Numbered from the stretch's first letter, positions 407 to 44,383 are shown. The stretch is DNA of 64,000 nucleotides from Candidatus Yonathbacteria bacterium (GCA_016215205.1 JACRKU010000013.1:29016-93015), one strand, 5' to 3'. Translations and numbers: made by a program. Notes: generated from the letters alone by a model not told the origin.

Positions 407-1324
407 ATGGCAAACAGGCACCTTTCACGAAGTATCGTAATGCAGGTTCTCTACGAATGGGATTTTCGCGGAGGTGCTCTTACCGACCTCGAGATAGAGC
501 AGGCTATCGCGCGAAATGCCGAAGAGTTTGCTCCCGGGGTTGGCGACATTTCGTTTATGAGGAAGCTCCTCTTGGGTATACTGGGCAAACGCGCCAAACT
601 CGACGATATTATTGAAAAAGCGGCGCCGGATTGGCCAATTGATAAAATTGCGCTCATCGACCGAAATATTCTTCGCATCGGACTTTACGAACTTCTTTTT
701 GAAGATCGCGCGCAAGTACCCGCAAAGGTTGCTATTAACGAAGCAATCGAACTTGCGAAAACATACGGCGGCGAGACAAGCGGTAAATTTATAAACGGCG
801 TGCTCGGCGCTGTGTACAAAGAGCTCGGCGAGCCGGGAAAAGACGAAACAAGCAAGAAGAAAAATTTGCAAAAAATTTCGCGTGTGCCGGTTGACCCCAA
901 AACCCTTCCGCTCGACAAGCTCGGCGGCGCGGTGGTGTACGCGCGTGACGGCGCGGATGTATATCTCGGTCTCGTGCATGATATTTTTGGGCACTGGACG
1001 CTCTCAAAGGGTCATTATAAAGACGGAGAGGACGATAAAACCGCGATTACGCGCATTGTGATGGAGGAGATTGGTCTTCCCATAACACTCGGAGAAGTCC
1101 TTGGCGAAAATGAATATGTGGCGTCACACCCAGAGAAAGGAAAGATGCGAAAACATGTGAGCTACTTTCTAGCAGAGGCGCCGTATCAAGAGATTAAGCT
1201 TATGAAAAAAGGCGGTCTTGATGATGCGCAGTGGTTCAAGCTCGCAGATATCATCGACCTTAATATGTATGACGATATGCTTCCGGTGATTACGAAGGCG
1301 GTGAATATATTACTCAAGAAATAA
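407..1324 (+). CDS. nusB: NusB antitermination factor fused to a C-terminal NUDIX hydrolase domain
   Basis: N-terminal ~140 aa NusB-like (SIVMQVLYEWDF..., ALIDRNILRIGLYELLF); C-terminal ~150 aa carries a Nudix box GHWTLSKGHYKDGEDDKTAITRIVMEEIGL (GX5EX7REUXEEXGU); single continuous ORF. Confidence 0.75.
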   Translation: MANRHLSRSIVMQVLYEWDFRGGALTDLEIEQAIARNAEEFAPGVGDISFMRKLLLGILGKRAKLDDIIEKAAPDWPIDKIALIDRNILRIGLYELLFEDRAQVPAKVAINEAIELAKTYGGETSGKFINGVLGAVYKELGEPGKDETSKKKNLQKISRVPVDPKTLPLDKLGGAVVYARDGADVYLGLVHDIFGHWTLSKGHYKDGEDDKTAITRIVMEEIGLPITLGEVLGENEYVASHPEKGKMRKHVSYFLAEAPYQEIKLMKKGGLDDAQWFKLADIIDLNMYDDMLPVITKAVNILLKK

Positions 1325-1334
1325 GAACAGTTTT

Positions 1335-2033
1335 ATGGAAAAGTTTAGAGCATTTGAAGAAAAGATTGGCGTGCATTTTAAAGACCGCGCGGTTCTCCGT
1401 GAGGCTTTTACGCATCGCTCATACATAAACGAAACACGCGAGCGCGGGCTTGACCACAACGAGCGTTTGGAGTTTCTGGGCGACGCGGTGGTGGAGCTTG
1501 TCGTAACAAATTTTCTATACAAAAAATATCCTCAAGCAAATGAAGGCGACCTCACAAGCTACCGCGCGGCGCTCGTAAATGCGGTGACGCTCGGCAATCT
1601 TGCTATTGATATGGGGATGGAGGAATATCTGCTCCTTTCAAAGGGCGAAGCGAAGGACAAGGGAACGAAAGCAAGGCAGATTATTCTTGCTAATGCATTT
1701 GAGGCGCTCGTCGGTGCTATTTATCTTGACCTCGGCTACGAAGCAGCGGATAAATTTCTGAAAGACTATCTCCTTGGAAAAACAGAAGAAATCGTGAAGA
1801 AGGAACTCTGGCGCGACGCAAAAAGCTTTTTTCAAGAAGAAGCGCAGGAGCATGTTGGAATCACTCCATCGTACCGCGTTATTAGTGAAGTTGGTCCCGA
1901 CCACGATAAGGATTTCAATGTGGGAGTGTATCTCAATGATGAACTCATTGGTATCGGAACAGGTAAGTCAAAGCAAGACGCCGAACAAGGCGCCGCCGCG
2001 GATGGGTTGAAAAAGAAAGGGTGGAATAAATAA
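1335..2033 (+). CDS. rnc: Ribonuclease III
   Basis: FTHRSYINE...ERLEFLGDAVVELVVTNFLY RNase III signature plus C-terminal dsRBD-like region. Confidence 0.9.
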   Translation: MEKFRAFEEKIGVHFKDRAVLREAFTHRSYINETRERGLDHNERLEFLGDAVVELVVTNFLYKKYPQANEGDLTSYRAALVNAVTLGNLAIDMGMEEYLLLSKGEAKDKGTKARQIILANAFEALVGAIYLDLGYEAADKFLKDYLLGKTEEIVKKELWRDAKSFFQEEAQEHVGITPSYRVISEVGPDHDKDFNVGVYLNDELIGIGTGKSKQDAEQGAAADGLKKKGWNK

Positions 2034-2070
2034 TTTGAAGGTCTATAAAGTCGCAAAGTCGAGAGGTACT

Positions 2071-2106
2071 TGACACATAATATATTATTTGATACGGTTT
2101 ATTTTA
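2071..2106 (+). promoter_or_regulatory. Putative sigma70-like promoter for the small ORF at 2147
   Basis: TTGACA followed ~17 nt later by a TA-rich -10-like hexamer; AGGAGG RBS 8 nt upstream of ATG 2147. Confidence 0.3.
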
Positions 2107-2146
2107 GAGAATTTGTTGTTTAACGTTACAGATAGGAGGTGCTTGT

Positions 2147-2425
2147 ATGTACATGGATTTGGGTACAAGGACTATTCTGGTTTCTAATGTATGCATGATT
2201 CTGCAGATCCAGGGGCTCGCCCTCCTTCTTTTAATGACGCTATTGATACCCATCGCCGTTTGCGCCAGTTTTGTGGGCTTGGATTGCAATTTCTGGGTTT
2301 GCGGCGGTAATAACCGCACTCCTGTGGCCACAGATTCGTATGTCTATGTCGACAGTTCTTTCAGGGTTGTCTGGGGTCGGTATAATGATTTTCTCACTCA
2401 TCAAACTTGTTCCATAGAGCGGTAA
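2147..2425 (+). CDS. Small hypothetical protein (92 aa) with central hydrophobic helix and Cys-rich C-terminal half
   Basis: Strong AGGAGG RBS, own putative promoter, intrinsic terminator immediately downstream; hydrophobic stretch LALLLLMTLLIPIAVCASFVG then C47, C52 and further Cys in the C-terminal half. Confidence 0.4.
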   Translation: MYMDLGTRTILVSNVCMILQIQGLALLLLMTLLIPIAVCASFVGLDCNFWVCGGNNRTPVATDSYVYVDSSFRVVWGRYNDFLTHQTCSIER

Positions 2426-2430
2426 GCCAA

Positions 2431-2470
2431 AAGCTTGAAACCCACAGAGGTTTCAGGCTTTTTCTTTTTG
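2431..2470 (+). terminator. Rho-independent terminator
   Basis: aagcttgaaacc/ggtttcaggctt 12-bp stem (one G.U) followed by TTTTCTTTTT. Confidence 0.7.
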
Positions 2471-2508
2471 TCGCATCGGTAAAGCCATTATGGTAAACTA
2501 TTCCCACA

Positions 2509-4758
2509 ATGCGCGTAAAAAGTTTGGAAATTTCTGGGTTTAAGTCCTTTGCAAAGAAGAGTGTTTTTGAGTTTGGGGCATCGATTTCGGCTATTGTGGG
2601 ACCGAATGGCTCTGGAAAGTCCAACGTCGCTGAAGCGCTTCGTTTCGTGCTCGGCGAGCAGTCGCTCAAGAGTATGCGTGGCAAGCGCACAGAAGACCTC
2701 ATCTTTAACGGCTCGAAAAGCGCCGAACGGCAAAATCGCGCGAAGGTGACGATTACCTTCGACAACAAAGACCGCACATTTCCCGTGGACTTTGACGAGG
2801 TTTCCATTGCGCGCGAAATCCACCGCGACGCCTCCAGTGAATATTTTTTGAATGGGTCTTCGGTACGCTTGAAAGATATTATTGAACTCCTTGCTTCGGT
2901 GCACATCGGCGCATCGGGACACCACATCATTTCGCAGGGCGAAGCGGATAGAATTTTGAATTCGTCGCCAAAGGACCGCCGCGCGATGATAGAAGACGCC
3001 CTCGGACTCAAGATTTACCACTGGAAAATAAACGAGAGTGAAAAGAAACTTTTGAAGACTGAGGAAAATATGCGTCAGTCGGAGTCTCTCCGCCGCGAGA
3101 TTGCGCCGCATATTAAATTTTTGAAAAAGCAGGTGGAGAAAGTCGAGCAGGCTAGAACATTGCGTGATGAACTCGCGCTTCTCTATGGCGATTATTTAAT
3201 TCGTGAGGAAACATACATCAAACACGCTCGTGAGAAGCTTCATGGAGAAAAAGGAAATCTTGAACGCGAACTTCATGAGGCAAATGAGGCGCTTCTCCGC
3301 GCGGATAGTTTGCGCGGCGTGCAGACGAAAGAAAGCGCCGAGGTTTCGGAGCTTGTGCGCGTGCGCTCGGAAATGGGCGCGGTGCGCCGCGAGCGAGATG
3401 ACCTTGGGAGGAAAATCGGTCGTCTCGAGGGAATGATAGAGTATGAAGAGCGCCGTTTGAATGCGCCGGAAGTTGCGCACGAGAAAACCGTTTCTGCAGA
3501 AGAGGCGGAAAATCTCGCGCAAAATCTGTATGACGAGCTCGGTCATGCAGAGGGAAGCGAGGACTATTTGTATATTAAAGGCGTAGTGAGCGCAACGCGT
3601 AACAAGCTCGGTAAATTCCTCGAACACATCAGGGGAAGTGGTGTCCAAAGAGGTCCCCGCGAGGCGGCAATAAAAGTGCTTGAGGATTTGCGCATTGAAC
3701 ATAAAAACCTTTTGGGCGCACAAGAGAACCTTGAGGATTTGATTTCAGGCTTTGAAGAAAAAATGCGCGAGCTTGAAGCAATACTTGAGACAAAGCGCAG
3801 AGATACCACCGATGCAGAACGCGCATCTTTTGAGTTTCGCGCAAAAAAACAAGAACTTACACTACGCATTGGCATAGTACGCGAACACATTGAAAATTTC
3901 ATGCGCGACGAAGTTGCATTTCGTGAAGAACTCCGCGAGGGGGGAATCCTCGTTGGTCGTTCCATTCTCGATTATGTGAATAATCATATTGATATCGAAC
4001 AAGCCCTTTCAGAGTCACGCGCCGAGCAAGAGAGTCGTCGCAAAAAAATTGAGCGCACTAAAATTCGTTTGGAGGATATTATGGGCGGAGGGTCAGGGGA
4101 GGATATTATGCGCGAGTATGAAGAAGCGGTGGAGCGTGATGTGTTTCTCTCGAAAGAACTCGAGGATTTGAAAACAAGCGCGGAGTCTCTCCGTGAATTG
4201 ATGCGCGGACTCGACGAGGAGCTTGGCGCGCAGTTCAAGGACGGTATTAAGAAAATCAATAAGCAGTTTGGAGAATTTTTTGCATTGATGTTTGGCGGTG
4301 GTACTGCATCGCTTGAAGTTGCGTTAGATAAAAAGAGGAAGCGTGGCGATACAGATATCGAAGGACTATTCGAAGGAGAGCCTGACGACGAAGAAGAAAC
4401 AGAAGAGGGAATTGATGTTGCGATTTCTTTGCCGCACAAAAAAATCCGCGGACTGCAAATGCTTTCTGGTGGCGAGCGCGCGCTCACATCTATCGCACTC
4501 ATCTTTGCGGTTTCGCAGGTGAATCCGCCGCCATTTCTTGTACTCGATGAAACTGATGCGGCTCTCGATGAAGCAAACTCTAAAAAGTATGGCGACATGG
4601 TCGCAACGCTCGCAAAATATTCCCAGCTCATCGTCATAACGCACAACCGCGAAACAATGTCCCGAGCAGGAATTATTTACGGCGTGACGATGGGCTCTGA
4701 CGCTATCTCAAAACTCCTCTCTATTAAGTTTGAGGAAGCGGAGCAGTTGGCGAAGTGA
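2509..4758 (+). CDS. smc: SMC-family chromosome condensation ATPase, short hinge-less form (749 aa)
   Basis: N-terminal head with FKSF, Walker A GPNGSGKSN, Q-loop region; long coiled-coil middle; C-terminal head with signature LSGGERALTSIALIFAV, Walker B FLVLDETDAALD, D-loop; no recognisable hinge (no G-rich hinge motif), length ~430 aa shorter than canonical SMC. Confidence 0.8.
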   Translation: MRVKSLEISGFKSFAKKSVFEFGASISAIVGPNGSGKSNVAEALRFVLGEQSLKSMRGKRTEDLIFNGSKSAERQNRAKVTITFDNKDRTFPVDFDEVSIAREIHRDASSEYFLNGSSVRLKDIIELLASVHIGASGHHIISQGEADRILNSSPKDRRAMIEDALGLKIYHWKINESEKKLLKTEENMRQSESLRREIAPHIKFLKKQVEKVEQARTLRDELALLYGDYLIREETYIKHAREKLHGEKGNLERELHEANEALLRADSLRGVQTKESAEVSELVRVRSEMGAVRRERDDLGRKIGRLEGMIEYEERRLNAPEVAHEKTVSAEEAENLAQNLYDELGHAEGSEDYLYIKGVVSATRNKLGKFLEHIRGSGVQRGPREAAIKVLEDLRIEHKNLLGAQENLEDLISGFEEKMRELEAILETKRRDTTDAERASFEFRAKKQELTLRIGIVREHIENFMRDEVAFREELREGGILVGRSILDYVNNHIDIEQALSESRAEQESRRKKIERTKIRLEDIMGGGSGEDIMREYEEAVERDVFLSKELEDLKTSAESLRELMRGLDEELGAQFKDGIKKINKQFGEFFALMFGGGTASLEVALDKKRKRGDTDIEGLFEGEPDDEEETEEGIDVAISLPHKKIRGLQMLSGGERALTSIALIFAVSQVNPPPFLVLDETDAALDEANSKKYGDMVATLAKYSQLIVITHNRETMSRAGIIYGVTMGSDAISKLLSIKFEEAEQLAK

Positions 4759-5181: not shown

Positions 5182-7210
5182 ACTTCACGAGTTCGTAGTC
5201 GATTGATTTGCGTTCTAGATCAACCGCTTTGACGCGGATTTTTAATTTATCTCCAAGAGTAAAACGCTCCCTAGTTTGTTTGCCGACGATGCGGTAATTC
5301 TCTTTTTCAAAAATATAGTAGTCATTGCCGAGGTCGCTGATGCGGATGAGACCTTCGCACTTTGTTTCATCTTCTTCCACAAAGACGCCCCATTCAGCAA
5401 CGCCGGAGATTGTGCCATTGAATTCTTTGCCTACTCGTTCGCTCATATATTCTGCTTGTTTGAATTTTATAGACGCGCGCTCGGCATCGGCGGCGAGTTT
5501 TTCCATTTCGGATGAATGCGCCGCAAGTGAGCGGTACTCGCTCATTTCTTCTTTTGTTACCTTCTCGTCCGCAAGGAAGTGCGCGAGAATGCGGTGCACC
5601 ATTACATCGGGGTAGCGGCGAATCGGCGAAGTAAAATGCGCGTAGTGCTCGTAAGCAAGGCCATAGTGCCCGATGTTTCGCGTCGAGTAGATTGCTTTTG
5701 CCATCGTGCGGATGGTCGCGGTGTTAAGCATTGTTTCTTCGGGCTTACCTTTTATTTGTTCAAGGAACTTATTTATGTCCGCGGACGAAACACGGCCTTC
5801 TTTAAGCGGGAGCTTGTATCCGAGCCCAGTGGCAAATTTTGCGAGTTCCGCGAGGCGCTCTGGTTTTGGTTCATCGTGCACGCGATACACAAAGAGGTCG
5901 CCCTCGTGCTCACCTTTGTTGCCCGTCTTCTCAAGTTTTTCTGAGACATATTCCGCAACTTTTTTATTTGCGAGAAGCATAAACATTTCCACGAGTTTGT
6001 TTGTATCCTGAAACTTTTTCGTGTACACGCGAATTGGCTTTTTGTTTGCATCGAGCTCAAAGCGCACCTCTTCGTGTTCAAATGATATAGCGCCTCCGGC
6101 TTTGTCTTGCACTACTAGTTTTTTTGCGATGATATTGAGGGTGTTGAGTTCGTCATAAAAAAGACCCGATCCGCTGTCTATTACTTCTTGCGCATTTTCA
6201 TATGTAAAACGTTTTGCCGAGTTGATGATTGCGCGCCCGAACCATGCGTTTCTCATCGTCACTTTTGAAGTTGGATTAGTTGCGGTGTCTGGCGCAAAAG
6301 TGAATACTGCCGAGAAAACAAGTTTGTCTTCTTTTTCGTTCAGACTGCAAAGGTCGTTAGAGAGGACCTCTGGGAACATTGGGATAACGCGGTCAACGAG
6401 GTAAATAGATGTCGCACGCTTGCGCGCCTCTTCGTCTATCAGAGCGTGCGGTTTTACATACGCCGATACATCCGCAATATGCACACCGATTTCAATGTCG
6501 CCATTTGGTAGTGTTTGAATAGAAATAGCGTCGTCAAAATCTTTTGCATCTGCGGGGTCGATGGTGAAAGTCGTTACCTTGCGGAAATCCCGACGCTTCT
6601 TTGCTTCTTCGGCAATGAATGCAGGCGCGGTTTTTTTGAGCGTGTCTGCTTCGCGGTGGATTTTCTCCGGGAGCTCCATTTGGAGACCTTTGTCGAGCAC
6701 AATCGCGCGGATTTCTGTTTCGTTGTCGCCGGCATCGCCAAGGACTTCGATAATTTCTGCAGTAGGGTTTTTCTTTGGGTCGGTCCAGTCTGAAAGACGA
6801 ACAAGGGCCTTCTTTCCGCGTAGTTTTTCACCATGTGGTGGGTTGGAGATGAGGAAATCCACATAGATGCGCGTATCTTGAGGAATGAGAAATGTTGCGC
6901 CGTTCTCTTCGTCAATTGTGCCAACAAAATTTACTTTAGCGCGCGCGAGAACCTCCACCACTTCGCCGGTTTGCTGTATGTCACCGATTTTGGCATTAAG
7001 CCTTACCTTTACCCTGTCGCGGGGAAGGGCGGTATTGAGAAAACCCGCCTCAATGCGAATGTCGTTTTCACGCGGACTGTCTTCGCCCACCGAAACAAAA
7101 CCAAAGCCCTTTGCAGTCGTCGTAATGACGCCCTCAACGAAGCTTCTGGTGAGAGTTTTTTCTTTGATCATATTGTTCCCAAGATAGCATAAAACTAACC
7201 CCTTGACCAT
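5180..7210 (-). CDS. rnr: Ribonuclease R / exoribonuclease II family (RNB domain, C-terminal S1)
   Basis: Cold-shock/OB N-terminus, central RNB catalytic region (…HIADVSAYV…, …GAISFE…), C-terminal S1-like (GTISGVAEWGVFVE); alternative start at 7171 (MIKEKTL). Confidence 0.85.
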   Translation of the reverse strand: MVKGLVLCYLGNNMIKEKTLTRSFVEGVITTTAKGFGFVSVGEDSPRENDIRIEAGFLNTALPRDRVKVRLNAKIGDIQQTGEVVEVLARAKVNFVGTIDEENGATFLIPQDTRIYVDFLISNPPHGEKLRGKKALVRLSDWTDPKKNPTAEIIEVLGDAGDNETEIRAIVLDKGLQMELPEKIHREADTLKKTAPAFIAEEAKKRRDFRKVTTFTIDPADAKDFDDAISIQTLPNGDIEIGVHIADVSAYVKPHALIDEEARKRATSIYLVDRVIPMFPEVLSNDLCSLNEKEDKLVFSAVFTFAPDTATNPTSKVTMRNAWFGRAIINSAKRFTYENAQEVIDSGSGLFYDELNTLNIIAKKLVVQDKAGGAISFEHEEVRFELDANKKPIRVYTKKFQDTNKLVEMFMLLANKKVAEYVSEKLEKTGNKGEHEGDLFVYRVHDEPKPERLAELAKFATGLGYKLPLKEGRVSSADINKFLEQIKGKPEETMLNTATIRTMAKAIYSTRNIGHYGLAYEHYAHFTSPIRRYPDVMVHRILAHFLADEKVTKEEMSEYRSLAAHSSEMEKLAADAERASIKFKQAEYMSERVGKEFNGTISGVAEWGVFVEEDETKCEGLIRISDLGNDYYIFEKENYRIVGKQTRERFTLGDKLKIRVKAVDLERKSIDYELVK

Positions 7211-7656: not shown

Positions 7657-7686
7657 TTGAAAATTTGTACCACTGCATGGTACAAT
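7657..7686 (+). promoter_or_regulatory. Putative promoter (-35 TTGAAA, -10 TACAAT)
   Basis: TTGAAA at 7657-7662, 18-nt spacer, TACAAT at 7681-7686, ATG at 7696. Confidence 0.35.
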
Positions 7687-7695
7687 ATAAACACG

Positions 7696-8892
7696 ATGGC
7701 ATTTTCTTTTTTTACTAATCGCGGAAATGATGAAACGCTGATCCTCCTTGTTGATATCGGGTCAGCGAGCGTGGGCGGCGCTCTTGTAAAGATTGAAAAA
7801 GGTCGCGCGCCGAATGTTCTTGCAACAGTTCGCAAAGACATCTCATTCCAAGAAGCGCTTTCTTCCGCTCGTTTCTTATCTGCAATGAATCACGCGCTCG
7901 ACCAAGTTTTAAAAACTATCCACCCAAAAACTACCGTCTTAGGTTCTCCCGCGCATATTTTTTGCACGCTTTCGTCCCCTTGGTTTATTTTAAAGACTCG
8001 CCGTTTATTGATTTCACGTCAAGAAGAATTTGAAGTAACCGAACGAGCTCTTGATGAATTTATAAGTGAAGACATCGCGCGTCTGAAAGAAGAACTCAAA
8101 GAAACGCTTCCGCCGAAGGATGTGAAAATCATCGAAAAGAAAATCATTCAGATGAAATTGAATGGATATGAGATCAAAAATCCATACGGCCAAAAAACGT
8201 CACAAATGGAGATTTTGATGACCATCGGGGTTTCGTCCGAAAAGGTTATTGAAAGCATCGAGCGTAAGCTCGGCAATGTTTTTCACGCAAAATCAGTCCA
8301 CTTCGGCGCATTTCCCATTGCCGCATTTAGCGCAGTAAGGGATATTTCCCCAACCGAAAAGAATTTCCTTTTTCTCGACATCACTGGCGAGGCGACCGAT
8401 GTATCACTGGTAAACAATGATCTTTTAATGGGGACGGTGACATTCCCCCATGGAAAAAATTTTTTTATTCGCGAAATTTCTGCGGAGATGCGCACTGTCC
8501 ACTTTGAGGCGGCAACGCTCTTTGCAATGTTTCTCCGTGATGAGTTGGATGACACAAAACGCGCCAGGATTGCGGCTATTATTGCGCGCGCTGAAGACGA
8601 ATGGCTTGCGCGCCTCGAAAAGTCGCTTGGTGCCCTTGCGAAGAACGGTGTATTGCCTCAGAAGGTATTTTTTACAACAGATGCTTTTATCGCTCCACTG
8701 TTTTCTTTGCTCCTCTCTCGCCGAGACCATATCGCAAAGATGGAGCACGGAACGAACGCATCGTTTGAGGCTCAGTATCTCGACCAGCTTATTGTTGAAA
8801 AGTTTGTTTCGTTCAATACGGGAGTTATTAGGGATCCGTTTATGGTCATTGAAGCGCTCCTAGCTTTCAAAATAGTCACGCAACACAAATAA
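7696..8892 (+). CDS. Actin-fold ATPase-like protein (FtsA/PilM/Ppx-GppA superfamily), hypothetical
   Basis: Two phosphate-binding-like motifs LLVDIGSASVGGALV and FLFLDITGEATDVSLV typical of ASKHA/actin-like ATPases; no family-specific motif recognised. Confidence 0.5.
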   Translation: MAFSFFTNRGNDETLILLVDIGSASVGGALVKIEKGRAPNVLATVRKDISFQEALSSARFLSAMNHALDQVLKTIHPKTTVLGSPAHIFCTLSSPWFILKTRRLLISRQEEFEVTERALDEFISEDIARLKEELKETLPPKDVKIIEKKIIQMKLNGYEIKNPYGQKTSQMEILMTIGVSSEKVIESIERKLGNVFHAKSVHFGAFPIAAFSAVRDISPTEKNFLFLDITGEATDVSLVNNDLLMGTVTFPHGKNFFIREISAEMRTVHFEAATLFAMFLRDELDDTKRARIAAIIARAEDEWLARLEKSLGALAKNGVLPQKVFFTTDAFIAPLFSLLLSRRDHIAKMEHGTNASFEAQYLDQLIVEKFVSFNTGVIRDPFMVIEALLAFKIVTQHK

Positions 8893-8893
8893 T

Positions 8894-10240
8894 ATGAATG
8901 ACATTATCCGAAAACAAATGAAAGATGTGATTGTTCCTCATAACGAGGTTATTCGTCGAGTGCCAACCGTACCCGAACCGTACGCCGCGCCAAAGCCTTC
9001 AGAAGAAATGGGGCGCATCGAAAAAAATCCATTTTTCAAAAAGGAGAGAAAAAAAGATGACGAACCACCAAAAGGCAAAAGCGCGCGTTCCCACGCGCTT
9101 ACTTGGGCGTTTCTGGCAGTCGCACTTTTGGTCGCAGTTTTTGTTGTCGCAAACTATTTTTCATCGGCGACGGTAGAAATCACGCCTATCACGCGAAGTA
9201 TAAATCTAGACCGTGATTTTACAGCGGTTTCGTCCGACAAAGCGGTGGAAGGCGATCTCATTTTTCATTTTGTTGCAACTTCCACGGAAAAAATAAAAGA
9301 GGTCCCCGCAACGGTCGAAAAGAAGATTCAAAAAAAAGCGTCAGGGAAAGTAACAATTTTCAACTCCTATAATGGAGAAAGTCAGCGTCTCATCAAAAAC
9401 ACGCGCCTCGAGTCTCCCGGTCGCAAAACATATCGCATCGACCAGTCGGTGATTGTGCCAGGGATGAAGGTCGTCAATGGCAAAAATATGCCCGGCTCTG
9501 TTGAGGCGGTCGTCTATGCCGATGCTCCCGGTCCGGATTATAATATTGATAAACCTGCCGATTTTACAATCCCCGGGTTTAATGGTGACCCCCGATATAC
9601 GAAGTTTTACGCACGCTCAAAACCGGATTCTCCTATCACGGGCGGTTTTTCCGGAACCGTGAATATTCCCTCGGACGAAGCAATCCTACTTGCGCAAGAA
9701 GAATTGAAGCAAGAGCTCCCTAAAATCGCGATTGAAAAAGCGCGCGCGCAGATTCCCGACGGAATGTCGTTGTTTCCCGGAGGTGTGATAATAAAATTTG
9801 AAGATGTGCCGCAGGACATAACCTTAGGCACGCTGTCAAAGGTTGTCGTGCGCGCCACGGCATCGGTATTTTTCTTTGATACGACTGTTCTCACAGAGAA
9901 ACTTGCAGCCGCATTATTGTCCGAAGACAAAGGAAAAACATTCGTAGTCTCTAATATGTCCGCTCTCGCATTCTCATTCGTTGACCCCGTGAACAACGTA
10001 GTTCTCTCTGACCTCTCAAAGATAAGTTTTCATATCAAGGGGGACTTGGTGTTTGTGGGGCAGATTGATGCCACAAAAATCCGCGCGGAACTCGCGGGCA
10101 AAGAAAAAAAAGATTTTGGCAAACTTATCGTCGGAGAGAATAGTATCGGCAAGGCGGATGTTGTTATTCGTCCAATGTGGAAAACTGCCTTTCCTAAAGA
10201 CCCCACAAAGATTACAATAAAAATTGTTAGCGGGGAATAG
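8894..10240 (+). CDS. Bitopic membrane protein with ~360-aa extracytoplasmic domain, hypothetical
   Basis: Translationally coupled to upstream gene (TAA-T-ATG); charged N-terminus, single TM (LTWAFLAVALLVAVFVVANYF), large C-terminal domain without recognised motifs. Confidence 0.5.
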   Translation: MNDIIRKQMKDVIVPHNEVIRRVPTVPEPYAAPKPSEEMGRIEKNPFFKKERKKDDEPPKGKSARSHALTWAFLAVALLVAVFVVANYFSSATVEITPITRSINLDRDFTAVSSDKAVEGDLIFHFVATSTEKIKEVPATVEKKIQKKASGKVTIFNSYNGESQRLIKNTRLESPGRKTYRIDQSVIVPGMKVVNGKNMPGSVEAVVYADAPGPDYNIDKPADFTIPGFNGDPRYTKFYARSKPDSPITGGFSGTVNIPSDEAILLAQEELKQELPKIAIEKARAQIPDGMSLFPGGVIIKFEDVPQDITLGTLSKVVVRATASVFFFDTTVLTEKLAAALLSEDKGKTFVVSNMSALAFSFVDPVNNVVLSDLSKISFHIKGDLVFVGQIDATKIRAELAGKEKKDFGKLIVGENSIGKADVVIRPMWKTAFPKDPTKITIKIVSGE

Positions 10241-39973: not shown

Positions 39974-40686
39974 ATGAATATGACGATACTCAAAAAAGAT
40001 ACATTGCGCAAAGTGGCGATATTCGATATAGACGGCACTATTTTCCGTTCGAGTTTGCTTATTGAGCTTGTTGAGGTTTTGATTGAGCTTGGGCTTTTCC
40101 ACACCAAAGTGCGCGCAGAATACGAGCGTGAAAAAGTGCGATGGCTCGACCGCAAAGGTGACTACGAGGCATACATCATGGCGGTCGTCGGAGTTTTTTG
40201 AAAAATATAAAAGGAATGCCGTACAGTGAGTTTTTGCGCGCATCCGAGCTAGTGGTTGCGCGCTATCGTCATCGCACATACATATTCACAGAGGATCTCA
40301 TCAGGAACTTAAAAAAGGAGGGATATTTCCTTCTCGCCATTTCGCAGTCGCCAAAGGGAACCCTCGATTTGTTTTGCAAAGAAATCGGTTTTGATAAAAC
40401 ATACGGCCGGCTTTATGAGACCGGTCCGACAGAATGTTTTACGGGGAATATTATGGATGAGCATTTGATTGCGAACAAAGCGGCTATCGTGCGCCGAGCT
40501 ATTGAAAAAGATGGGCTCACTCTTGATGGTTCGGTTGGCGTGGGGGACACCGAGGGTGATATTTCATTTCTTGAACTTGTTGACCGGCCGATTTGTTTCA
40601 ATCCAAATTTGAAACTTTACCGCCATGCAAAGAGAATGAATTGGGAAACGGTGGTCGAGAGGAAGGACGTGATTTATGAACTGTAA
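39974..40686 (+). pseudogene. HAD-superfamily hydrolase (HAD-IB/PSPase-like) split by a frameshift at a T-homopolymer
   Basis: ORF 39974-40201 carries motif I (VAIFDIDGTIF); ORF 40198-40686 in another frame carries motif IV (GVGDTEGDISFL); junction at ggagttttttgaaaaa (T6/A5 run) - authentic frameshift or sequencing error. Confidence 0.6.
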
Positions 40687-40689
40687 AAA

Positions 40690-41604
40690 TTATTTCAATA
40701 GAGATGAAATAGGAACTTCAAGTGCGGCAAACGCCGAGTTTTTTGATACTCTGCCATCTTTGCGAATAAGGAAATAGGGGAGGCCGCGCTTTTCCAATCG
40801 CGCAATCGCTTCAGTTTCTGAAAGCAAAATTGCAAGAGAAGCCTCTGTGTCCGCTTCTTCGCATGTGTTTGCAATGACTGTCGCGCTCGCAAACCCCGTA
40901 GACGGTTTGCCTGTTCGCATATCAACGAGATGGTGCCACTCTCGACCCTTGTTTGCGCCTTTTGTTTGGTAAGTGCCTGATGTCGCCATCCCGCCGTTTT
41001 GGATTGTTACTGCCGCTACTATGGCGTCTGGATTACGCGGATCTTCTATTGCGATGTTCCACGGCGCGTCGTTTTCGTACATGCCACGGGTGATTATATC
41101 CCCTCCCGCATTTATCAAAAATCCGGGAACTTTGATGAGCGACTTCCCCGCCTCGTCTATTGCCATCCCTTTTACAATACTTGCTGGTTCAAGGACTTGC
41201 GCGGGAGCGAGGCGGACGGAAAGCTCGCGGTCGTTAAACTCAATGTTACGGTATGTTAGGGGAGGTGATGGCGGTGTAAAATTACTAGGAAGGCCGTAAT
41301 CATACGATGCGAGTACGCCGCCGACTGACGGGTCAAATGCGCCGCGGGTTTCTTCCGCGAGCGCGACACACTTTTTTAATACTTGAAACATAGGAAGGCT
41401 TGCCGTGAACCATTGACCGCCCGCAGTGTTTAATTTGTGAAGCTCGCTTGTTTCATTGAAACGACTGAAACGTTTATCATACTCATGAAAAATATTTTCC
41501 GCTTCGGAAACATATTTTCTTGCTTCTGATTTTTTTATTCCGACAAGCGTAATATGCACCGGAATACCCATTGAGTGAAATACATGATGAATTGTTTCAG
41601 TCAT
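40690..41604 (-). CDS. apbE: FAD:protein FMN transferase (ApbE family flavin transferase)
   Basis: ApbE motifs: GAFDPSVGG, IVKGMAIDEAG, LINAGGDI, GMATSGTYQT; start chosen at M33 (41604), 2 nt after upstream stop. Confidence 0.8.
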   Translation of the reverse strand: MTETIHHVFHSMGIPVHITLVGIKKSEARKYVSEAENIFHEYDKRFSRFNETSELHKLNTAGGQWFTASLPMFQVLKKCVALAEETRGAFDPSVGGVLASYDYGLPSNFTPPSPPLTYRNIEFNDRELSVRLAPAQVLEPASIVKGMAIDEAGKSLIKVPGFLINAGGDIITRGMYENDAPWNIAIEDPRNPDAIVAAVTIQNGGMATSGTYQTKGANKGREWHHLVDMRTGKPSTGFASATVIANTCEEADTEASLAILLSETEAIARLEKRGLPYFLIRKDGRVSKNSAFAALEVPISSLLK

Positions 41605-41605
41605 A

Positions 41606-42193
41606 CTAATCGTCCCATTCGTCGTCGTCACCACGATATTTGCGCGGCACAGAAGGTTTGCTTGCGGGGAATCTAGTCGCAGAAGAGTTTGTGACAGCAT
41701 CGGTAGAAGAAATAATACTTTGCCCCCTTGCGCTTGCCTTCACAATAGCGTCTTCAAGCGATGACTTGAACGCAATACTTGTGTATGTTGCTCCCGATAC
41801 GCCCTGAATGTTTGCCGAGCCATTTTTCAGCGCTTGTTGTACGAGGTACGGTTCTGCGTACTGCGAGGGAGGAGAGTTTGGAACCTGTGGCATCGTAACA
41901 TCCGTAATTTTGCCATTGATTACGCTGATTGACGCCACCACATTTCCCCACGGTGTTTGGTATGTTCTGCCGGTGAATGTGCTGGCGACCATCGTCCCCT
42001 GTGTGGTTGTCGGTGTGACGGAAATAATTGGCTTTTTTGCGGTTGTGGGTTCTTGCCCCGGAGCTGGAGTTACGGACAAAGTTTCGCTCTTTGATCGAGT
42101 TGCTCCGATGATAACGAGAACAACAGATGTCGCCGTGAAAGAAAAGACCAGAAATCTCTGTAAGTTTTTTTGGAATGGAGACATAATCATCAA
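41606..42193 (-). CDS. FMN-binding domain protein (flavinylation substrate), membrane-anchored, extracytoplasmic
   Basis: N-terminal TM/signal anchor, Thr/Pro-rich linker, FMN_bind motif GVSGATYTSIAF (S/TGAT flavinylation site as in NqrC/RnfG); acidic C-terminal tail. Confidence 0.7.
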   Translation of the reverse strand: MMIMSPFQKNLQRFLVFSFTATSVVLVIIGATRSKSETLSVTPAPGQEPTTAKKPIISVTPTTTQGTMVASTFTGRTYQTPWGNVVASISVINGKITDVTMPQVPNSPPSQYAEPYLVQQALKNGSANIQGVSGATYTSIAFKSSLEDAIVKASARGQSIISSTDAVTNSSATRFPASKPSVPRKYRGDDDEWDD

Positions 42194-42664
42194 TTATACA
42201 ACTTCAAAAAGCTCGCGCACTTTCGAGCGGACGAAAAACCACCATCCGAGCAGGAGCACCACTTCACCAACATAGAGCAGAAGAAGCGCAAGCGCAAAAT
42301 TTTGAACCTCGTGCTTTATCGACTCCTCTAATTTCACAAGAACGTAATTATTGCTTCCGTTTGCGTACGCGAGATACTTTTTTTCCGCAATTTTTGTCTC
42401 ATAAAAACCGACACGCTCCACTTTAGTCACATGAAAAGAAAGAATATCGTCAGGCAGAGCAATTGTTTGCTCTGTTTTGGGAGTTGTTTGCGCGGGTAAC
42501 TTTTCCGAAAGTGTCGCAAGCTCGTTTTTGAGCTCATTTGTTTCAAACCACTTGAGTGCGCCCAGAGTTATCGCATTTAAAGCGAAGAGAGCCACTAACA
42601 CCAAGATGCCGTAGTTTCGCACCGCCCCAAGTCCTCTATATAATGCTAATTCTGTTGATTCCAT
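42194..42664 (-). CDS. Hypothetical membrane protein (156 aa), translationally coupled to FMN-binding gene
   Basis: TM helices at both ends (ILVLVALFALNAITLGAL; FALALLLLYVGEVVLLLGWWFFV); stop abuts downstream start. Confidence 0.5.
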   Translation of the reverse strand: MESTELALYRGLGAVRNYGILVLVALFALNAITLGALKWFETNELKNELATLSEKLPAQTTPKTEQTIALPDDILSFHVTKVERVGFYETKIAEKKYLAYANGSNNYVLVKLEESIKHEVQNFALALLLLYVGEVVLLLGWWFFVRSKVRELFEVV

Positions 42665-42850
42665 ACTTTTTTATTATACCCCTGCATTTAAAGAAAACCA
42701 AGCTATTTTTTCTGCGCTCTTTGTCAGCGCACTCAACCTTAGAGCGAGCCGCTTCCTTTTTCAGTGCCTTGCGCAGCGCGGCGGCGCGAGCAGAGCAAAT
42801 TTTTAGCAAAAAATTATGCGTGCAATGAAAAAGTAAGCGGCGAGCGGCCT

Positions 42851-43639
42851 TTATCCGAATTTTTGCACGAATATCTGATTTTTTGGAACACCAATACCCT
42901 TGAGCGCGCCAAGGACGCCAAAGGTCATTGCTGGGATGCCGCAAATATACACATCGCTTTTACCTAAAAATTCTTCTTTGCCATTGACTTGGTCTGTCAC
43001 ATATCCTCGCGCGCCGCTCCACGATGCGTCAGCATCGGATACGCATGGTACAAAAGTGAAGCTTGGGTGCTTGCGGGAGAGTTCCTCAAACTCCTTCTTG
43101 AATGCGATATCCGACTCTTTTGGCGAGCCGAGAAGAAGAACAGAGTTTACATTTTCCTTGATTGCCTCCTCTATCATACGACGGAACGGCGCAACACCCG
43201 TGGATGTTGCAAAGAATACTTTTGCGCGGCCTGTGCCATAGTGATAAGGAAAATCATCAAATGGGCCATAGCAAGTGACCTTGTCGCCGACGACTGCGTC
43301 GCGGAAAAAACGCGCGCCTGCGCCGCCTCCAGAAAAACTCACAAGAATAGTGAATGTTCGCGTATCTGCGGTGGCAACTGAATATGCGCGGGGGATACAC
43401 CCCCATGCAATTGTTTGTATGTAGCAACCAATATGGAATGGTTCGGCGATTTGGGAGGGGAGCGCAATGGTGACTTTTTGAATGCGCGTGCCAATACGCT
43501 CGGATGCTACGATGGTCCCTTCAAAATGTGTGGCCTCCGTGAACCAGTATTTAATTATTTTAAAAAAAGACATAGAAAACAGAAGAAAACAGGGCGAGGA
43601 TGAAATGAATACCAAGAATCCCCAGACAGAGCCACCCAA
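42851..43639 (-). CDS. Membrane-anchored FNR-family FAD/NAD(P)H-binding oxidoreductase
   Basis: N-terminal TM; FAD-binding RAYSVAT (RxYS), GGGAGARFF; NAD(P)-binding ATSTGVAPF; C-terminal ...CGIPAMT... FNR-like; alternative start M22 at 43576. Confidence 0.7.
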   Translation of the reverse strand: MGGSVWGFLVFISSSPCFLLFSMSFFKIIKYWFTEATHFEGTIVASERIGTRIQKVTIALPSQIAEPFHIGCYIQTIAWGCIPRAYSVATADTRTFTILVSFSGGGAGARFFRDAVVGDKVTCYGPFDDFPYHYGTGRAKVFFATSTGVAPFRRMIEEAIKENVNSVLLLGSPKESDIAFKKEFEELSRKHPSFTFVPCVSDADASWSGARGYVTDQVNGKEEFLGKSDVYICGIPAMTFGVLGALKGIGVPKNQIFVQKFG

Positions 43640-43802
43640 ACCAATGATGGAGCGGGGTAAGCGGAATCTGAAGTTTCATGAAAATATTGTAATTGTATTG
43701 CTTCACGAGCGCGGAGATGATAAGGAGCAGAAAAAAGAACCCGCCAACCATTCCCGTCCACCACACAAGTCCATGCCCTGCAAAAATAGTCATTGATGTC
43801 AT
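43555..43802 (-). CDS. His-containing 2-3 TM membrane segment (80 aa), possibly the heme-binding ferric-reductase-like N-terminal part of the downstream oxidoreductase
   Basis: H53 and H67 spaced H-x13-H within one TM helix (LHHWFGWLCLGILGIHFIL), reminiscent of bis-heme FRD/NOX helices; overlaps the FNR-like ORF by 85 nt (22 nt with the alternative start M22) in another frame, with an A/T7 homopolymer in the overlap. Confidence 0.4.
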
Positions 43803-43907
43803 ATATTTTTCATTTTAGCATCTACTGACTTTGTATGGAATAGCCCTGTTGCTTTTTTCATGTAATTGTGGTACGGTAAAAATGGAAATCACATACGGAG
43901 GTACTCT

Positions 43908-44015
43908 ATGTTTAAGAAACTCTGGAAGACTCTTGTGGCGGTACTCCGAGCGATTGTGTCACCGGGGGAATTCCCGGAATTGATCGGACAAGACAAACAG
44001 GAACGTAAGCGCTAA
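43908..44015 (+). CDS. Small ORF (35 aa) with strong RBS and terminator
   Basis: GGAGG 8 nt upstream of ATG; MFKKLWKTLVAVLRAIVSPGEFPELIGQDKQERKR; terminator at 44027. Confidence 0.3.
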   Translation: MFKKLWKTLVAVLRAIVSPGEFPELIGQDKQERKR

Positions 44016-44026
44016 AAACAGTCTAA

Positions 44027-44066
44027 GCAAAAAGAAAAATGCCCAGCCACTCTAGAGTGGTTGGGC
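44027..44066. terminator. Bidirectional rho-independent terminator
   Basis: aatgcccagccactc-taga-gtggttgggcatt then TTGTTTT; between convergent small ORF (+) and 98-aa gene (-). Confidence 0.7.
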
Positions 44067-44086
44067 ATTTGTTTTGAGTGTGGCAA

Positions 44087-44383
44087 TCAACGGTCGTCTT
44101 CGGGAATCCCCACGACGAGAGATGCTTCGCTCTTTGCGGCGTCTTCTAGTACTTTGCCTCTCCGGTTTTTAGGGAATAAGTTCAATTGTTTCGCTGTACT
44201 ACTTTTCTTCCGCTCTCGCCGCTTCCTTTTGCCGAGAATGCTACCGACTTCGCGGCGAGTTGTCGCCCAGTCGAAATTTTTGTAGTTCTGCATTACTTTG
44301 GCGAATGCGGCATCGAATCCCATTTCTTGCTTTCGCATGACATACGAAACTTCATTTGCCACATCATCGTAGACTGAATCCAC
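44087..44383 (-). CDS. Hypothetical protein (98 aa), basic C-terminal half
   Basis: No recognised domain; KRKRRERKK basic stretch; divergent from parB. Confidence 0.45.
   Translation of the reverse strand: MDSVYDDVANEVSYVMRKQEMGFDAAFAKVMQNYKNFDWATTRREVGSILGKRKRRERKKSSTAKQLNLFPKNRRGKVLEDAAKSEASLVVGIPEDDR

Follow-up and report, generated by a model that had tools for sequence, protein, structure and literature searches.

A five-gene flavinylation-associated cluster in Candidatus Yonathbacteria and a possible minimal route for electrons to a surface flavoprotein

Members of the CPR/Patescibacteria are regarded as fermenters that live without respiratory chains, and how they re-oxidise NADH and acquire iron is poorly understood. 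Could such cells nevertheless pass electrons from the cytoplasm to a flavoprotein outside the membrane? The question is raised by a locus in a 64,000-nt stretch from the genome of an ultra-small bacterium, Candidatus Yonathbacteria (JACRKU010000013.1; hereafter the window), in which an earlier note had proposed an operon for flavin-based electron transfer. CPR bacteria were reported as strikingly under-represented in a large survey of flavinylation, and a later study of CPR genomes from acid mine drainage found ApbE/FmnB in 54% but not its partners (PMC12153355).

Gene limits and layout of the cluster

The locus had been described as five ORFs in the same direction on the minus strand, at 40690-43802, and reading of the sequence bore this out (g1 to g5; Table 1). 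Also as proposed, g3, g4 and g5 are translationally coupled, as judged from their start and stop positions: g4 starts (TTG/ATG) directly after the g3 stop, and the g5 ATG at 41604 lies 1 nt past the g4 TAG. The g2 start and the g1 stop overlap by 14 nt (43560-43573). The spacer between g2 and g3, in contrast, is 186 nt long; it has no Rfam match and its fold is not unusual, and it contains a promoter-like site that ends 8 nt before the g3 ATG. Because of this gap and the promoter-like site, the five genes may form two transcripts, split between g2 and g3. A clear terminator (44037-44070) closes the gene upstream of g1, and an extended -10-like element, TGCTAAAAT, located ~10 nt upstream of the g1 ATG, is a possible promoter with a very short leader. 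No acceptor-related gene was found linked to the cluster, the remainder of the window (~40 other ORFs examined) being housekeeping.

Table 1. Positions of genes and sequence elements of the cluster in the window
Feature	Position	Strand	Basis or remark
g1	43560-43802	minus	ORF, 80 aa
g1 His codon H52	43647-43649	minus	
g1 His codon H53	43644-43646	minus	
g1 His codon H66	43605-43607	minus	
g2	ORF 42851-43639; corrected 42851-43573	minus	240 aa; ortholog lengths
g3	42194-42664	minus	156 aa
g4	41606-42193; likely start ATG 42184	minus	192 aa from ATG 42184
g5	ORF 40690-41700; corrected 40690-41604	minus	304 aa; ortholog starts
Promoter-like TTGGTT-17-TATAAT	42673-42701	minus	Inferred from sequence
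Extended -10-like element TGCTAAAAT	43812-43820	minus	Inferred from sequence

Reductase, flavin transferase and flavoprotein

For g2, the assignment as an FNR-type FAD/NAD(P)H oxidoreductase was supported by NAD_binding_1 (72.1 bits, cut-off 22; E=7.5e-20) and by the presence of all four motifs, RAYS, GGGAGARFF, ATSTGVAPF and YICGIP, the last two corresponding to the GTGxAP-type and CG motifs of the family. FAD_binding_6 scored 14.6 bits against a cut-off of 21.1, with RAYS present, and the BenC alignment (residues 12-239) and the MmoC/BenC models span this region. Models of MmoC, BenC and NqrF matched at 1e-27 to 1e-16, and among PDB entries the FAD/NADH domain of NqrF was the best match (9e-16), with BenC at 1.5e-13. 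Judged from these profiles, g2 is an NqrF/BenC-like FNR-type reductase without the Fe-S domain, and its electron donor is most likely NADH. The N-terminal TM helix previously ascribed to the reductase was an artefact of an over-extended ORF that crosses g1: the orthologs (~95) are 238-243 aa long, matching a start at ATG 43573 (MSFFKIIKYW...), and the 22 surplus codons are the 3' end of g1 in another frame. No hydrophobic segment was found in g2, and by its sequence it is a soluble, stand-alone protein of 240 aa that is not membrane-anchored.

The identity of g5 as an ApbE flavin transferase was secure (PF02424, 173.2 bits, cut-off 25.6, E=1e-50, profile positions 1-262 of 266), and ApbEs in the PDB matched at 1e-26 to 1e-12. 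The motifs WHHLVDMRTG at residue 223 and ADTEAS at residue 251 align with TM1553 and the Vibrio ApbE and fit the conserved active-site patterns HH-x-x-D-x-x-TG and A-D-x-x-[ST], which we take to be functional in ApbE. Its start was placed at 41604 (MTETIHHVFHSMGIP) and the start at 41700 was rejected. Residue 11 aligns to residue 21 of the signal-less 3PND construct, and all orthologs open right at the domain start, even in the very distant cluster L088. A signal peptide, lipobox, TM segment and N-terminal Cys are absent from g5 and from every ortholog; classical signal peptides occur in the same genome, for example in a D-Ala-D-Ala carboxypeptidase. The Cys content of g5 is on par with that of cytoplasmic g2 (1.2-1.4% in the two). 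The ApbE thus lacks the leader that the extracytoplasmic location proposed for it would require, and it looks cytoplasmic.

The FMN_bind domain of g4 was recovered with PF04205 (30.4 bits, cut-off 22), together with the reported SGATYTS motif at residues 130-136 (41777-41797). This motif is invariant across all g4 orthologs and repeats and predicts covalent FMN on Thr133. The closest solved relative is the covalent-FMN domain SaFMN3-D2 (PDB 8P2A, 3e-11). From its N-terminal anchor, g4 continues through a Pro/Thr-rich linker into the FMN_bind domain, which is followed by an acidic tail, RKYRGDDDEWDD; the acidic ...DDDEWDD tail occurs in the Yonathbacteria group only. Many relatives encode a second protein (g4') with 2-4 further FMN_bind domains, whereas g4 of the window is single-domain, and in locus L083 the Pro/Thr linkers reach ~120 residues. 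The orphan g3 has two TM helices around an ~85-aa loop with a four-stranded sheet.

On which side of the membrane is the flavin? The charge bias around the g4 anchor was ambiguous (n=30; net charge +2.1 on its N-terminal and +1.6 on its C-terminal flank), whereas Cys exclusion and the Pro/Thr linkers favour export: g4 and g4' contain ~1 Cys per 7000 residues, compared with 1.43% in cytoplasmic g2, and the Cys content of g3 is 0.08%. Because they are almost free of Cys and have Pro/Thr-rich linkers, the FMN_bind proteins, along with g3, look exported, and g3 is a probable extracytoplasmic accessory or scaffold subunit. By these signals, a cytoplasmic FMN_bind domain, which the earlier note had named as grounds for refutation, is neither established nor excluded. 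A cytoplasmic ApbE conflicts with an exported substrate, and the pair would need an extra, unprecedented step.

Alternatively, the flavoprotein could face the cytoplasm, with the g4 N-terminus out and the C-terminus in, and the leaderless ApbE would flavinylate it there. g4 would then relay electrons from g2 to g1, or join g2 as a membrane-bound cytoplasmic redox enzyme, and g1 alone would span the membrane as carrier, if anything does. This would agree with the leaderless state of ApbE in every ortholog and with the R-x-K-K sequence conserved just after the anchor, and a cytoplasmic ApbE with a cytoplasmic substrate is known from Klebsiella pneumoniae, whose enzyme is signal-less like g5 (PMC12052999). 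The Klebsiella substrate, however, is a soluble fumarate reductase, whereas the sole motif-bearing protein here is membrane-anchored and looks exported. We consider a cytoplasm-facing g4 unlikely, since it is hard to reconcile with the scarcity of Cys in g4 and g4' relative to g2 and g5, and since long Pro/Thr spacers and tandem FMN_bind domains are typical of surface proteins. Moreover, the g4 anchor, a basic N-region followed by a hydrophobic stretch, presumably resembles those of the NqrC/RnfG type, and a cytoplasmic relay would be redundant because an FNR is able to reduce a haem protein directly. The closest solved domain, in addition, comes from a membrane-anchored extracellular multi-FMN protein (PMC10339131).

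The membrane protein g1 and the conservation of gene order

g1 has two TM helices and by sequence is a member of a tiny orphan family, with just 6 cluster representatives among 1.84 billion proteins. Its 27 homologs are 77-85 aa long, none of them annotated, and the reading frame is kept in loci L001, L003 and L005. The H-x13-H pair noted previously within one helix withstood comparison: H52-x13-H66 in TM2 is invariant in 24 homologs, as is H53, and the pair is invariant in distant relatives even at 17-35% identity. Down to 17% identity, only the His pair plus Trp, Gly and Leu are kept. The positive charges of g1 are confined to the conserved loop KQYNYNIFMK, which would put H52 towards the cytoplasmic side and H66 towards the exterior.

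A ferric-reductase/NOX domain in g1 was not supported at Pfam's threshold. In a profile search, Ferric_reduct (PF01794) scored 15.8 bits, below its cut-off of 28, and matches from all 24 members were sub-threshold (best E=3.8e-4). DUF4405 (PF14358) reached 14.5 bits against a cut-off of 26.7, with a weak match in 6 of the 24 members, and some members gave a sub-threshold match to Ni_hydr_CYTB. No Pfam family was matched by g1 above threshold and no PDB sequence was matched at all, and a fold search with a tandem relative (P0196) returned generic helical matches only. g1 is also not a ferric-reductase chain with six helices and two His pairs, as each chain has two helices and one H-x13-H pair.

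The neighbourhoods of two distant g1 relatives bear on its role. P0196 is a tandem g1 duplication with four helices; both of its halves carry H-x13-H and a basic loop. The P0196 gene overlaps a 228-aa FNR gene by 8 nt, and no FMN_bind or ApbE gene was found nearby. P0197 lies directly behind FMN_bind and ApbE genes, with the FNR gene absent. g1 thus pairs independently with each end of the proposed chain, and these neighbourhoods make it the likely membrane link. It is probably a homodimer that binds two haems.

It could also be that g1 is not a cytochrome: its His residues would bind a metal (Fe or Cu) or relay protons or ions, g1 would be a small anchor or assembly subunit, and electrons would take a different way through the membrane or would not traverse it. 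The sub-threshold family matches, the absent PDB match and the uninformative fold search are in line with this, as is a doubtful haem supply, CPR bacteria being commonly regarded as unable to make haem. Haem proteins do exist in the group, as Cyt-b5 and Ferric_reduct proteins are encoded on a related CPR contig. We regard a non-cytochrome g1 as quite improbable, because bis-His haem sites in the ferric-reductase superfamily classically show this H-x13-H spacing within one helix and the His are among the few residues conserved in the most distant relatives. Furthermore, the weak profile matches (Ferric_reduct, Ni_hydr_CYTB and DUF4405) all lie in di-haem cytochrome b families, and the tandem 4-TM form coupled to an FNR alone mirrors NOX/FRE logic.

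The order g1-g2-g3-g4-g5 is repeated in ~20 species-level CPR genomes, with g2 identities of 47-74%, and was seen in metagenome contigs too; judged from gene order, this recurrence is more than chance. Variants were also found. L022 has a permuted order (g3-g4-g5, then g1-g2); in L005/L027 the same locus has lost g4 and g5 and retains a truncated g2, which suggests shared decay of both halves. g3 is missing in L024 and L083, g1-g2 occur without the other cluster genes in L085, and L088 has g4-g5-g1 and no g2. That the halves are mere neighbours, with g1 and g2 as one unit (e.g. a ferric or flavin reductase) and g3, g4 and g5 as an unrelated unit that matures flavoproteins and has a promoter to itself, would fit the g2-g3 spacer with its promoter-like site and the partial clusters L085 and L088, but is highly improbable, since the halves are adjacent and co-oriented in ~20 species despite differing flanking genes, remain contiguous when permuted, appear to decay together, and are each linked to g1 in distant relatives.

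Proposed electron path and its relation to known systems

An electron-transfer module aimed outward, as the earlier note had envisaged, is upheld by the protein families, the synteny and the distant g1 neighbourhoods; its anchored reductase, ferric-reductase assignment and extracytoplasmic ApbE are not. We favour, with a probability of roughly 0.55, a minimal one-way chain through which NADH electrons would traverse the membrane and reach a flavoprotein at the surface. The cluster is best read as a stripped-down variant of electron-transfer systems already known to be associated with flavinylation, the MsrQ-like and NQR/RNF-like ones.

The path below is a proposal, from haem binding, dimerisation and docking to its outward course, the final acceptor and its function in the cell. 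NAD(P)H, most likely NADH, would be oxidised on the FAD of cytoplasmic g2, which would dock at the positively charged cytoplasmic loop of g1. As a parallel homodimer, g1 would form a four-helix bundle in which the H52 pair would hold one haem b near the cytoplasmic face and the H66 pair a second haem near the outer face. The outer haem would reduce the FMN on Thr133 of g4, put in place by g5, with g4 membrane-anchored on its Pro/Thr-rich tether outside the cell and g3 serving as an auxiliary subunit in the membrane whose small domain lies outside. In relatives, g4' would extend the path outward. The flavin would pass electrons to an acceptor not encoded in the cluster, candidates being ferric iron, oxygen, quinone-like or humic compounds and a host surface. 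Physiologically, the chain may allow a fermentative organism to re-oxidise NADH, or it may reduce iron so that this can be taken up. A fuller version, which we hold to be doubtful, is that the two-helix, 80-aa g1 dimer around two haems would be the smallest known NOX-like wire, fed by a separate NqrF-like reductase, that the surface flavoprotein would be flavinylated by the leaderless cytoplasmic ApbE before Sec export, and that the whole would serve as an external electron sink.

In published MsrQ-like and NQR/RNF-like clusters, FMN_bind and apbE occur together with a membrane electron carrier and a PF00175 NAD-binding domain (PMC8238504). MsrQ-like systems (Meheust et al. 2021, eLife, PMC8238504) share the logic of a His-ligated carrier with PF00175, FMN_bind and apbE, and their proposed path, like that of the chain here, leads from NAD(P)H to a flavin outside the cytosol. 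In these systems, however, which are found for the most part in Actinobacteria, the carrier is a PF01794 protein with six helices and in most cases a fusion to the NAD-binding domain, whereas the carrier here has 80 aa and two helices, scores below the PF01794 cut-off and is encoded separately from the reductase; the cluster also adds the orphan g3, a leaderless ApbE and a CPR host. By the definition of that study (a PF01794 gene with apbE/FMN_bind), the cluster is not MsrQ-like, as g1 fails PF01794 although apbE, FMN_bind and PF00175 are present. The two-subunit NQR/RNF-like systems of Actinobacteria and CPR (PMC8238504; PMC11334425) share the NqrF-like FAD/NADH module and an anchored NqrC/RnfG-like FMN_bind protein; they too occur in CPR and are proposed to support one-way flow from NAD(P)H to the outside. 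In those systems the PF00175 reductase is fused to an NqrB/RnfD-like domain that forms the membrane part, in place of which the cluster has the g1 family: none of the five proteins matches NqrB/RnfD, and g2 stands alone.

With NOX/FRE, the proposed chain shares NAD(P)H, FAD, two stacked bis-His haems, an external acceptor and H-x13-H in one helix. NOX/FRE proteins are single chains of six helices, with His pairs on helices 3 and 5 and a FAD_binding_8/NAD_binding_6 reductase, whereas each two-helix chain here carries a single His pair and the reductase is a separate protein of the FAD_binding_6/NAD_binding_1 type. With one His pair per chain, a dimer would be required; the haem sites of FezC have been modelled as built by homodimerising (PMC11334425). 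Like DUF4405 proteins and FezC, whose haem binding was shown experimentally (PMC11334425), g1 would be a small flavinylation- or iron-associated haem b protein. A single DUF4405 chain, however, comprises six helices and four His, and no g1 member reaches its cut-off, which places g1 outside that family.

Listeria-type flavin-based EET (Ndh2, EetA/B, DmkA/B, PplA, FmnA/B) shares an ApbE-type transferase (FmnB) and, as proposed here, a surface FMN_bind protein (PplA-like) as terminal carrier in a cell without an outer membrane. Electrons enter through NDH-2 and demethylmenaquinone in Listeria and would enter through the FNR and g1 here, and FmnB is a lipoprotein whereas g5 is leaderless. Genes for Ndh2, EetA/EetB, FmnA, DmkA/B and quinone synthesis were absent among the cluster proteins and ~40 other ORFs of the window. 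The multi-flavinylated SaFMN3/CbFMN4 proteins (PMC10339131; PDB 8P2A) have the N-terminal anchor in common with g4, which has one domain in the window and counterparts of 2-4 domains in relatives.

Taken together, the cluster offers a concrete partner set for the ApbE/FmnB of CPR bacteria, defines the unannotated g1 family as a candidate for a minimal electron carrier through the membrane that can be put to the test, and raises the mechanistic puzzle of a cytoplasm-type ApbE serving an exported substrate. If the fuller version is true, flavinylation before Sec export would be a maturation route undescribed for any ApbE substrate, and the chain, with the 2-4-flavin 'wires' of relatives, would provide an external electron sink for respiration-less cells, possibly the host surface. 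If confirmed, it would be a simple three-protein system in which to study or engineer electron export.

Gene content and conservation of the cluster

The five co-oriented minus-strand genes proposed in an earlier note on this DNA are present as open reading frames (Table): g1, a two-helix protein; g2, an FNR-type reductase; g3, an orphan; g4, an FMN_bind protein; and g5, an ApbE flavin transferase. Tight coupling of g3, g4 and g5, also claimed there, was confirmed because the g4 start lies at most 9 nt from the g3 stop and g5 starts at 41604, 1 nt past the g4 stop. The g2-g3 gap measures 186 nt and holds a TTGGTT-17-TATAAT site immediately ahead of g3; no riboswitch or structured RNA was found in this spacer (0 Rfam matches; fold z-score of -0.42, not unusual). 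The true start of g2 is the ATG at 43573 (MSFFKIIKYW...), which gives a 14-nt overlap with the g1 stop. The N-terminal TM helix that had been ascribed to the reductase is the end of g1 in a different frame, and g2 homologs are nearly all 238-243 aa long (n ~95). A frameshifted g1-g2 fusion at the T7 run (43560-43573) was rejected, as the ~95 orthologs are 240 aa, the two genes do not overlap in the related locus L001, and no fused ortholog was found. The 297-aa homolog P0022, considered as such a fusion, is merely a g2 ORF over-extended through g1. Gene calls in public records cannot be trusted around g1; in L001 the caller took the wrong frame over it.

Pfam searches bore out the ApbE, FMN_bind and FNR-type assignments, with g5 matching ApbE (E=1e-50), g4 matching FMN_bind (30.4 bits against a cut-off of 22) and g2 matching NAD_binding_1 (7.5e-20). 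In NCBIfam, g2 falls among the MmoC, BenC and NqrF reductase modules; of solved structures, the FAD/NADH domain of NqrF (9e-16) and BenC are its best relatives, and all four FNR motifs were found. g5 aligns to solved ApbEs and carries both the WHH-x-x-D-x-x-TG and AD-x-x-S motifs. The closest match of the g4 domain is SaFMN3-D2 (PDB 8P2A, 3e-11), whose parent protein is membrane-anchored, with covalent FMN demonstrated (PMC10339131). The 65 homologs of g3 (~156 aa) belong to no Pfam family, and the AF2 model of g3 (pLDDT 76) predicts a four-stranded sheet between a long N-terminal helix and a C-terminal one.

Scanning of the g2 alignment against one genome per GTDB species identified 22 close loci, all in CPR (Yonath-, Nomura-, Uhr-, Magasanik- and Doudnabacteria, and Paceibacterota). 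Relatives of g1-g5 were contiguous and co-oriented in ~20 of these, and metagenome contigs had the same contiguous arrangement. Because the flanking genes vary among loci, the cluster itself is the conserved unit, and it is a real, conserved module. Within 5 kb of the distant FNR loci L028-L082 (20-33% identity), no relatives of g1, g3, g4 or g5 were found, HMM searches included. Two loci, L024 and L083, lack g3. The Doudnabacteria locus L005/L027 shares its synteny with L083 apart from the loss of g4 and g5 and a g2 cut to 187 aa; g1 is kept, and the pattern resembles decay of the entire system.

In many relatives a multi-domain paralog, g4', is inserted between g4 and apbE, with two to four FMN_bind repeats and an SGAT motif in each. 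It is built from an N-terminal anchor, Pro/Thr/Ala-rich linkers between domains and an acidic tail, contains zero cysteine, and occurs in L006, L008, L010, L013, L014, L015, L017, L018 and L020; the window has none. The acidic tail is conserved and ends both g4 and the multi-domain paralogs in the Yonathbacteria group (L001, L006-L020) and is absent in L022-L026, L083 and L084. A shared sorting signal was rejected, since no other window ORF has such a tail; metal binding and docking are possible roles.

The g2 protein is 100% identical to a hypothetical protein of a Candidatus Yonathbacteria MAG (HZB11), which places the window in a CPR/Patescibacteria genome. The ~40 other ORFs of the window are housekeeping genes (translation, chaperones, cell division, peptidoglycan synthesis), and no respiratory genes were found among them. 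L001 has one 236-aa HAD gene at the position of the split window gene, and the split is a frameshift, by gene decay or assembly error. On L084, a related CPR contig on which the five-gene cluster is also found, further genes code for a protein with a Cyt-b5 domain, a heliorhodopsin, a stand-alone Ferric_reduct (PF01794) protein of 288 aa and a DsbD_TM protein; haem and other envelope redox proteins therefore occur in this group.

Features of the window and of related loci, with coordinates on the respective contig
Locus	Position	Strand	Feature
Window	40690-43802	-	five-gene cluster g1-g5
Window	43560-43802	-	g1, 80 aa
Window	41606-41650	-	acidic C-terminal tail of g4: P-x-V-P-R-K-Y-R, then D/E run, then W-D-D
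Window	39974-40686	+	HAD-family hydrolase, convergent with cluster, downstream of apbE; split into 75 aa (39974-40201) and 162 aa (40198-40686)
Window	43866-44015	+	small ORF MFKKLWKTLVAVLRAIVSPGEFPELIGQDKQERKR, just upstream of g1; gene also called there in L001
Window	44037-44070		strong terminator, closes the 98-aa minus-strand gene
Window	44087-44383	-	98-aa gene without Pfam family, just upstream of g1; gene also called there in L001
Window	7657-8892, 8894-10240	+	pair of large neighbouring ORFs (411 and 448 aa) without Pfam match at E<=1e-4, amid housekeeping genes
L001	5725-5973		wrong-frame gene call over g1
L003	12701-12723 (contig edge)	opposite to cluster	second 240-aa PF00175 paralog, ~6 kb downstream of cluster, same genome
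L005/L027	5600-7300		reduced cluster
L006	6878-8701		g4'
L018	6793-8253		g4'
L019	6773-8983		FMN_bind-ApbE fusion rejected, ORF spans run of N
L084	623-991, 2810-3601, 14332-15198, 15747-16517		four further genes (see text)
L085 (also L086)	6001-7135		tandem g1 relative, 151 aa, four helices, translationally coupled to 228-aa FNR gene; low-GC (31%) contig
L088 (also L087)	439-3534		co-oriented response regulator, histidine kinase, FMN_bind, ApbE (244 aa) and g1 relative (85 aa); no FNR gene; 26% GC
L089	3-664		fragment of CDGSH-type iron-sulfur protein, 85-aa Cys-rich anchored protein, then P0200; short contig

The g1 family and its putative haem ligands

Pfam gave sub-threshold matches alone for g1 (Ferric_reduct at 0.015, DUF4405 at 0.053), and by the Pfam threshold g1 is not a Ferric_reduct protein. 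Its 27 close homologs are 77-85 aa long and none is annotated. A g1 profile recovered only six clusters among 1.84 billion representatives, so that g1 is a very small orphan family; against PDB sequences the profile had no match, even at E=10. The weak matches fell on Ferric_reduct (24/24 members), Ni_hydr_CYTB (7) and DUF4405 (6), all of them b-type membrane cytochrome families, with no curated cut-off reached. Invariant residues include W14, W15, K34, Q35, N37, H52, H53, W54, G56, W57 and H66, and among relatives at 17-35% identity only one Trp, one Gly, one Leu, H52 and H66 remain invariant. The H-x13-H pair of the second helix (H52, H66) is the core of the family. The only charges flanking the two helices are lysines, all in the connecting loop; this would put H52 and the loop at the cytoplasmic face and H66 nearer the exterior. 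As each chain has a single His pair, a bundle with two haems would need a dimer.

Distant relatives occur in other gene contexts. P0196 is a natural tandem duplication of g1. Each half has its own H-x13-H pair; the protein has four helices, both loops are basic and the linker is acidic, an architecture that matches a parallel g1 dimer. Its gene overlaps a 228-aa FNR gene by 8 nt, and FMN_bind and ApbE genes are absent nearby. P0197 lies directly downstream of genes for a TM-anchored FMN_bind protein and a leaderless ApbE, where an FNR gene is absent. From these two neighbourhoods, g1 associates separately with a reductase and with a flavoprotein/transferase pair, as expected for a membrane link between reductase and flavoprotein. 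The L085 pair is a split NOX-like module of two genes, without an FMN_bind or ApbE gene. In L088 the FMN_bind protein is TM-anchored and carries TGATSTS; its gene run points to a variant that is regulated and takes electrons from another donor. P0200 in L089 is the weakest g1 relative (E=8e-4).

Cellular location of g4 and ApbE

g5 and all its orthologs start with the ApbE domain itself and carry neither a signal peptide nor a lipobox nor any hydrophobic segment, and the ApbE of the very distant L088 cluster is likewise leaderless. Classical signal peptides are in use in the window genome, for example on a D-Ala-D-Ala carboxypeptidase. Cysteine makes up 1.17% of residues in ApbE, near the 1.43% of g2, and 0.08% in g3; g4 and g4' together contain about 1 Cys per 7000 residues. 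Bacteria that lack an oxidising periplasm are known to exclude cysteine from their exported proteins. The g4 proteins also have Pro/Thr-rich spacers, of ~120 residues in L083. Cysteine exclusion, spacers and the missing ApbE leader suggest that g4 is exported and that ApbE stays in the cytoplasm, contrary to the extracytoplasmic ApbE expected before. The charge bias of the g4 anchor, however, leaves its orientation ambiguous (net values of +2.1, N side, and +1.6, C side; n=30). The conflict between an exported substrate and a cytoplasmic ApbE has three possible resolutions. g4 may be flavinylated ahead of Sec export, and ApbE is known to accept tags of only seven residues (PMC12052999). Alternatively, ApbE may be exported by a non-classical route, or the FMN_bind domain may lie in the cytoplasm.

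A candidate electron path and its relation to known systems

Taking g4 as exported, we propose that NADH would give electrons to the FAD of g2, from which a g1 dimer would carry them through an inner haem (H52 pair) to an outer one (H66 pair), and on to the FMN bound covalently to g4, outside the cell, and then to a putative acceptor. ApbE would serve as maturase, and relatives would lengthen the path with more flavin domains. We hold this whole path, with the haem binding, dimerisation, docking, outward direction and physiology that it implies, to be slightly favoured (probability about 0.55).

Two known types of system are comparable. In MsrQ-like clusters, mainly of Actinobacteria, FMN_bind and apbE accompany a PF01794 protein with six helices, to which a PF00175 NAD-binding domain is often fused; in NQR/RNF-like clusters, some of them in CPR, FMN_bind accompanies a fusion of NqrB/RnfD-like and NqrF-like domains (Meheust et al., PMC8238504). 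In the text searched of the supplement to that study, Patescibacteria and Yonathbacteria were not found. DUF4405 and FezC are haem proteins, and the haem sites of FezC are modelled to arise by homodimerising (PMC11334425). Unlike MsrQ-like and DUF4405 proteins, g1 stays below the cut-offs of PF01794 and PF14358; unlike NQR/RNF-like systems, the cluster has no NqrB/RnfD domain and its reductase is a separate gene. As proposed, the cluster works like these MsrQ-like and NQR/RNF-like systems yet falls outside both by family membership, and the new subunit g3 and the leaderless ApbE are features of its own. FmnB was reported from 54% of the CPR MAGs of a 2025 study, in which PplA, EetA/B and FmnA were 'typically missing' (PMC12153355). 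Our literature search found no paper describing the g1-g5 cluster. The interest of the cluster lies in a minimal putative cytochrome, in what may be an electron sink for CPR cells that do not respire, and in an unexpectedly leaderless ApbE.
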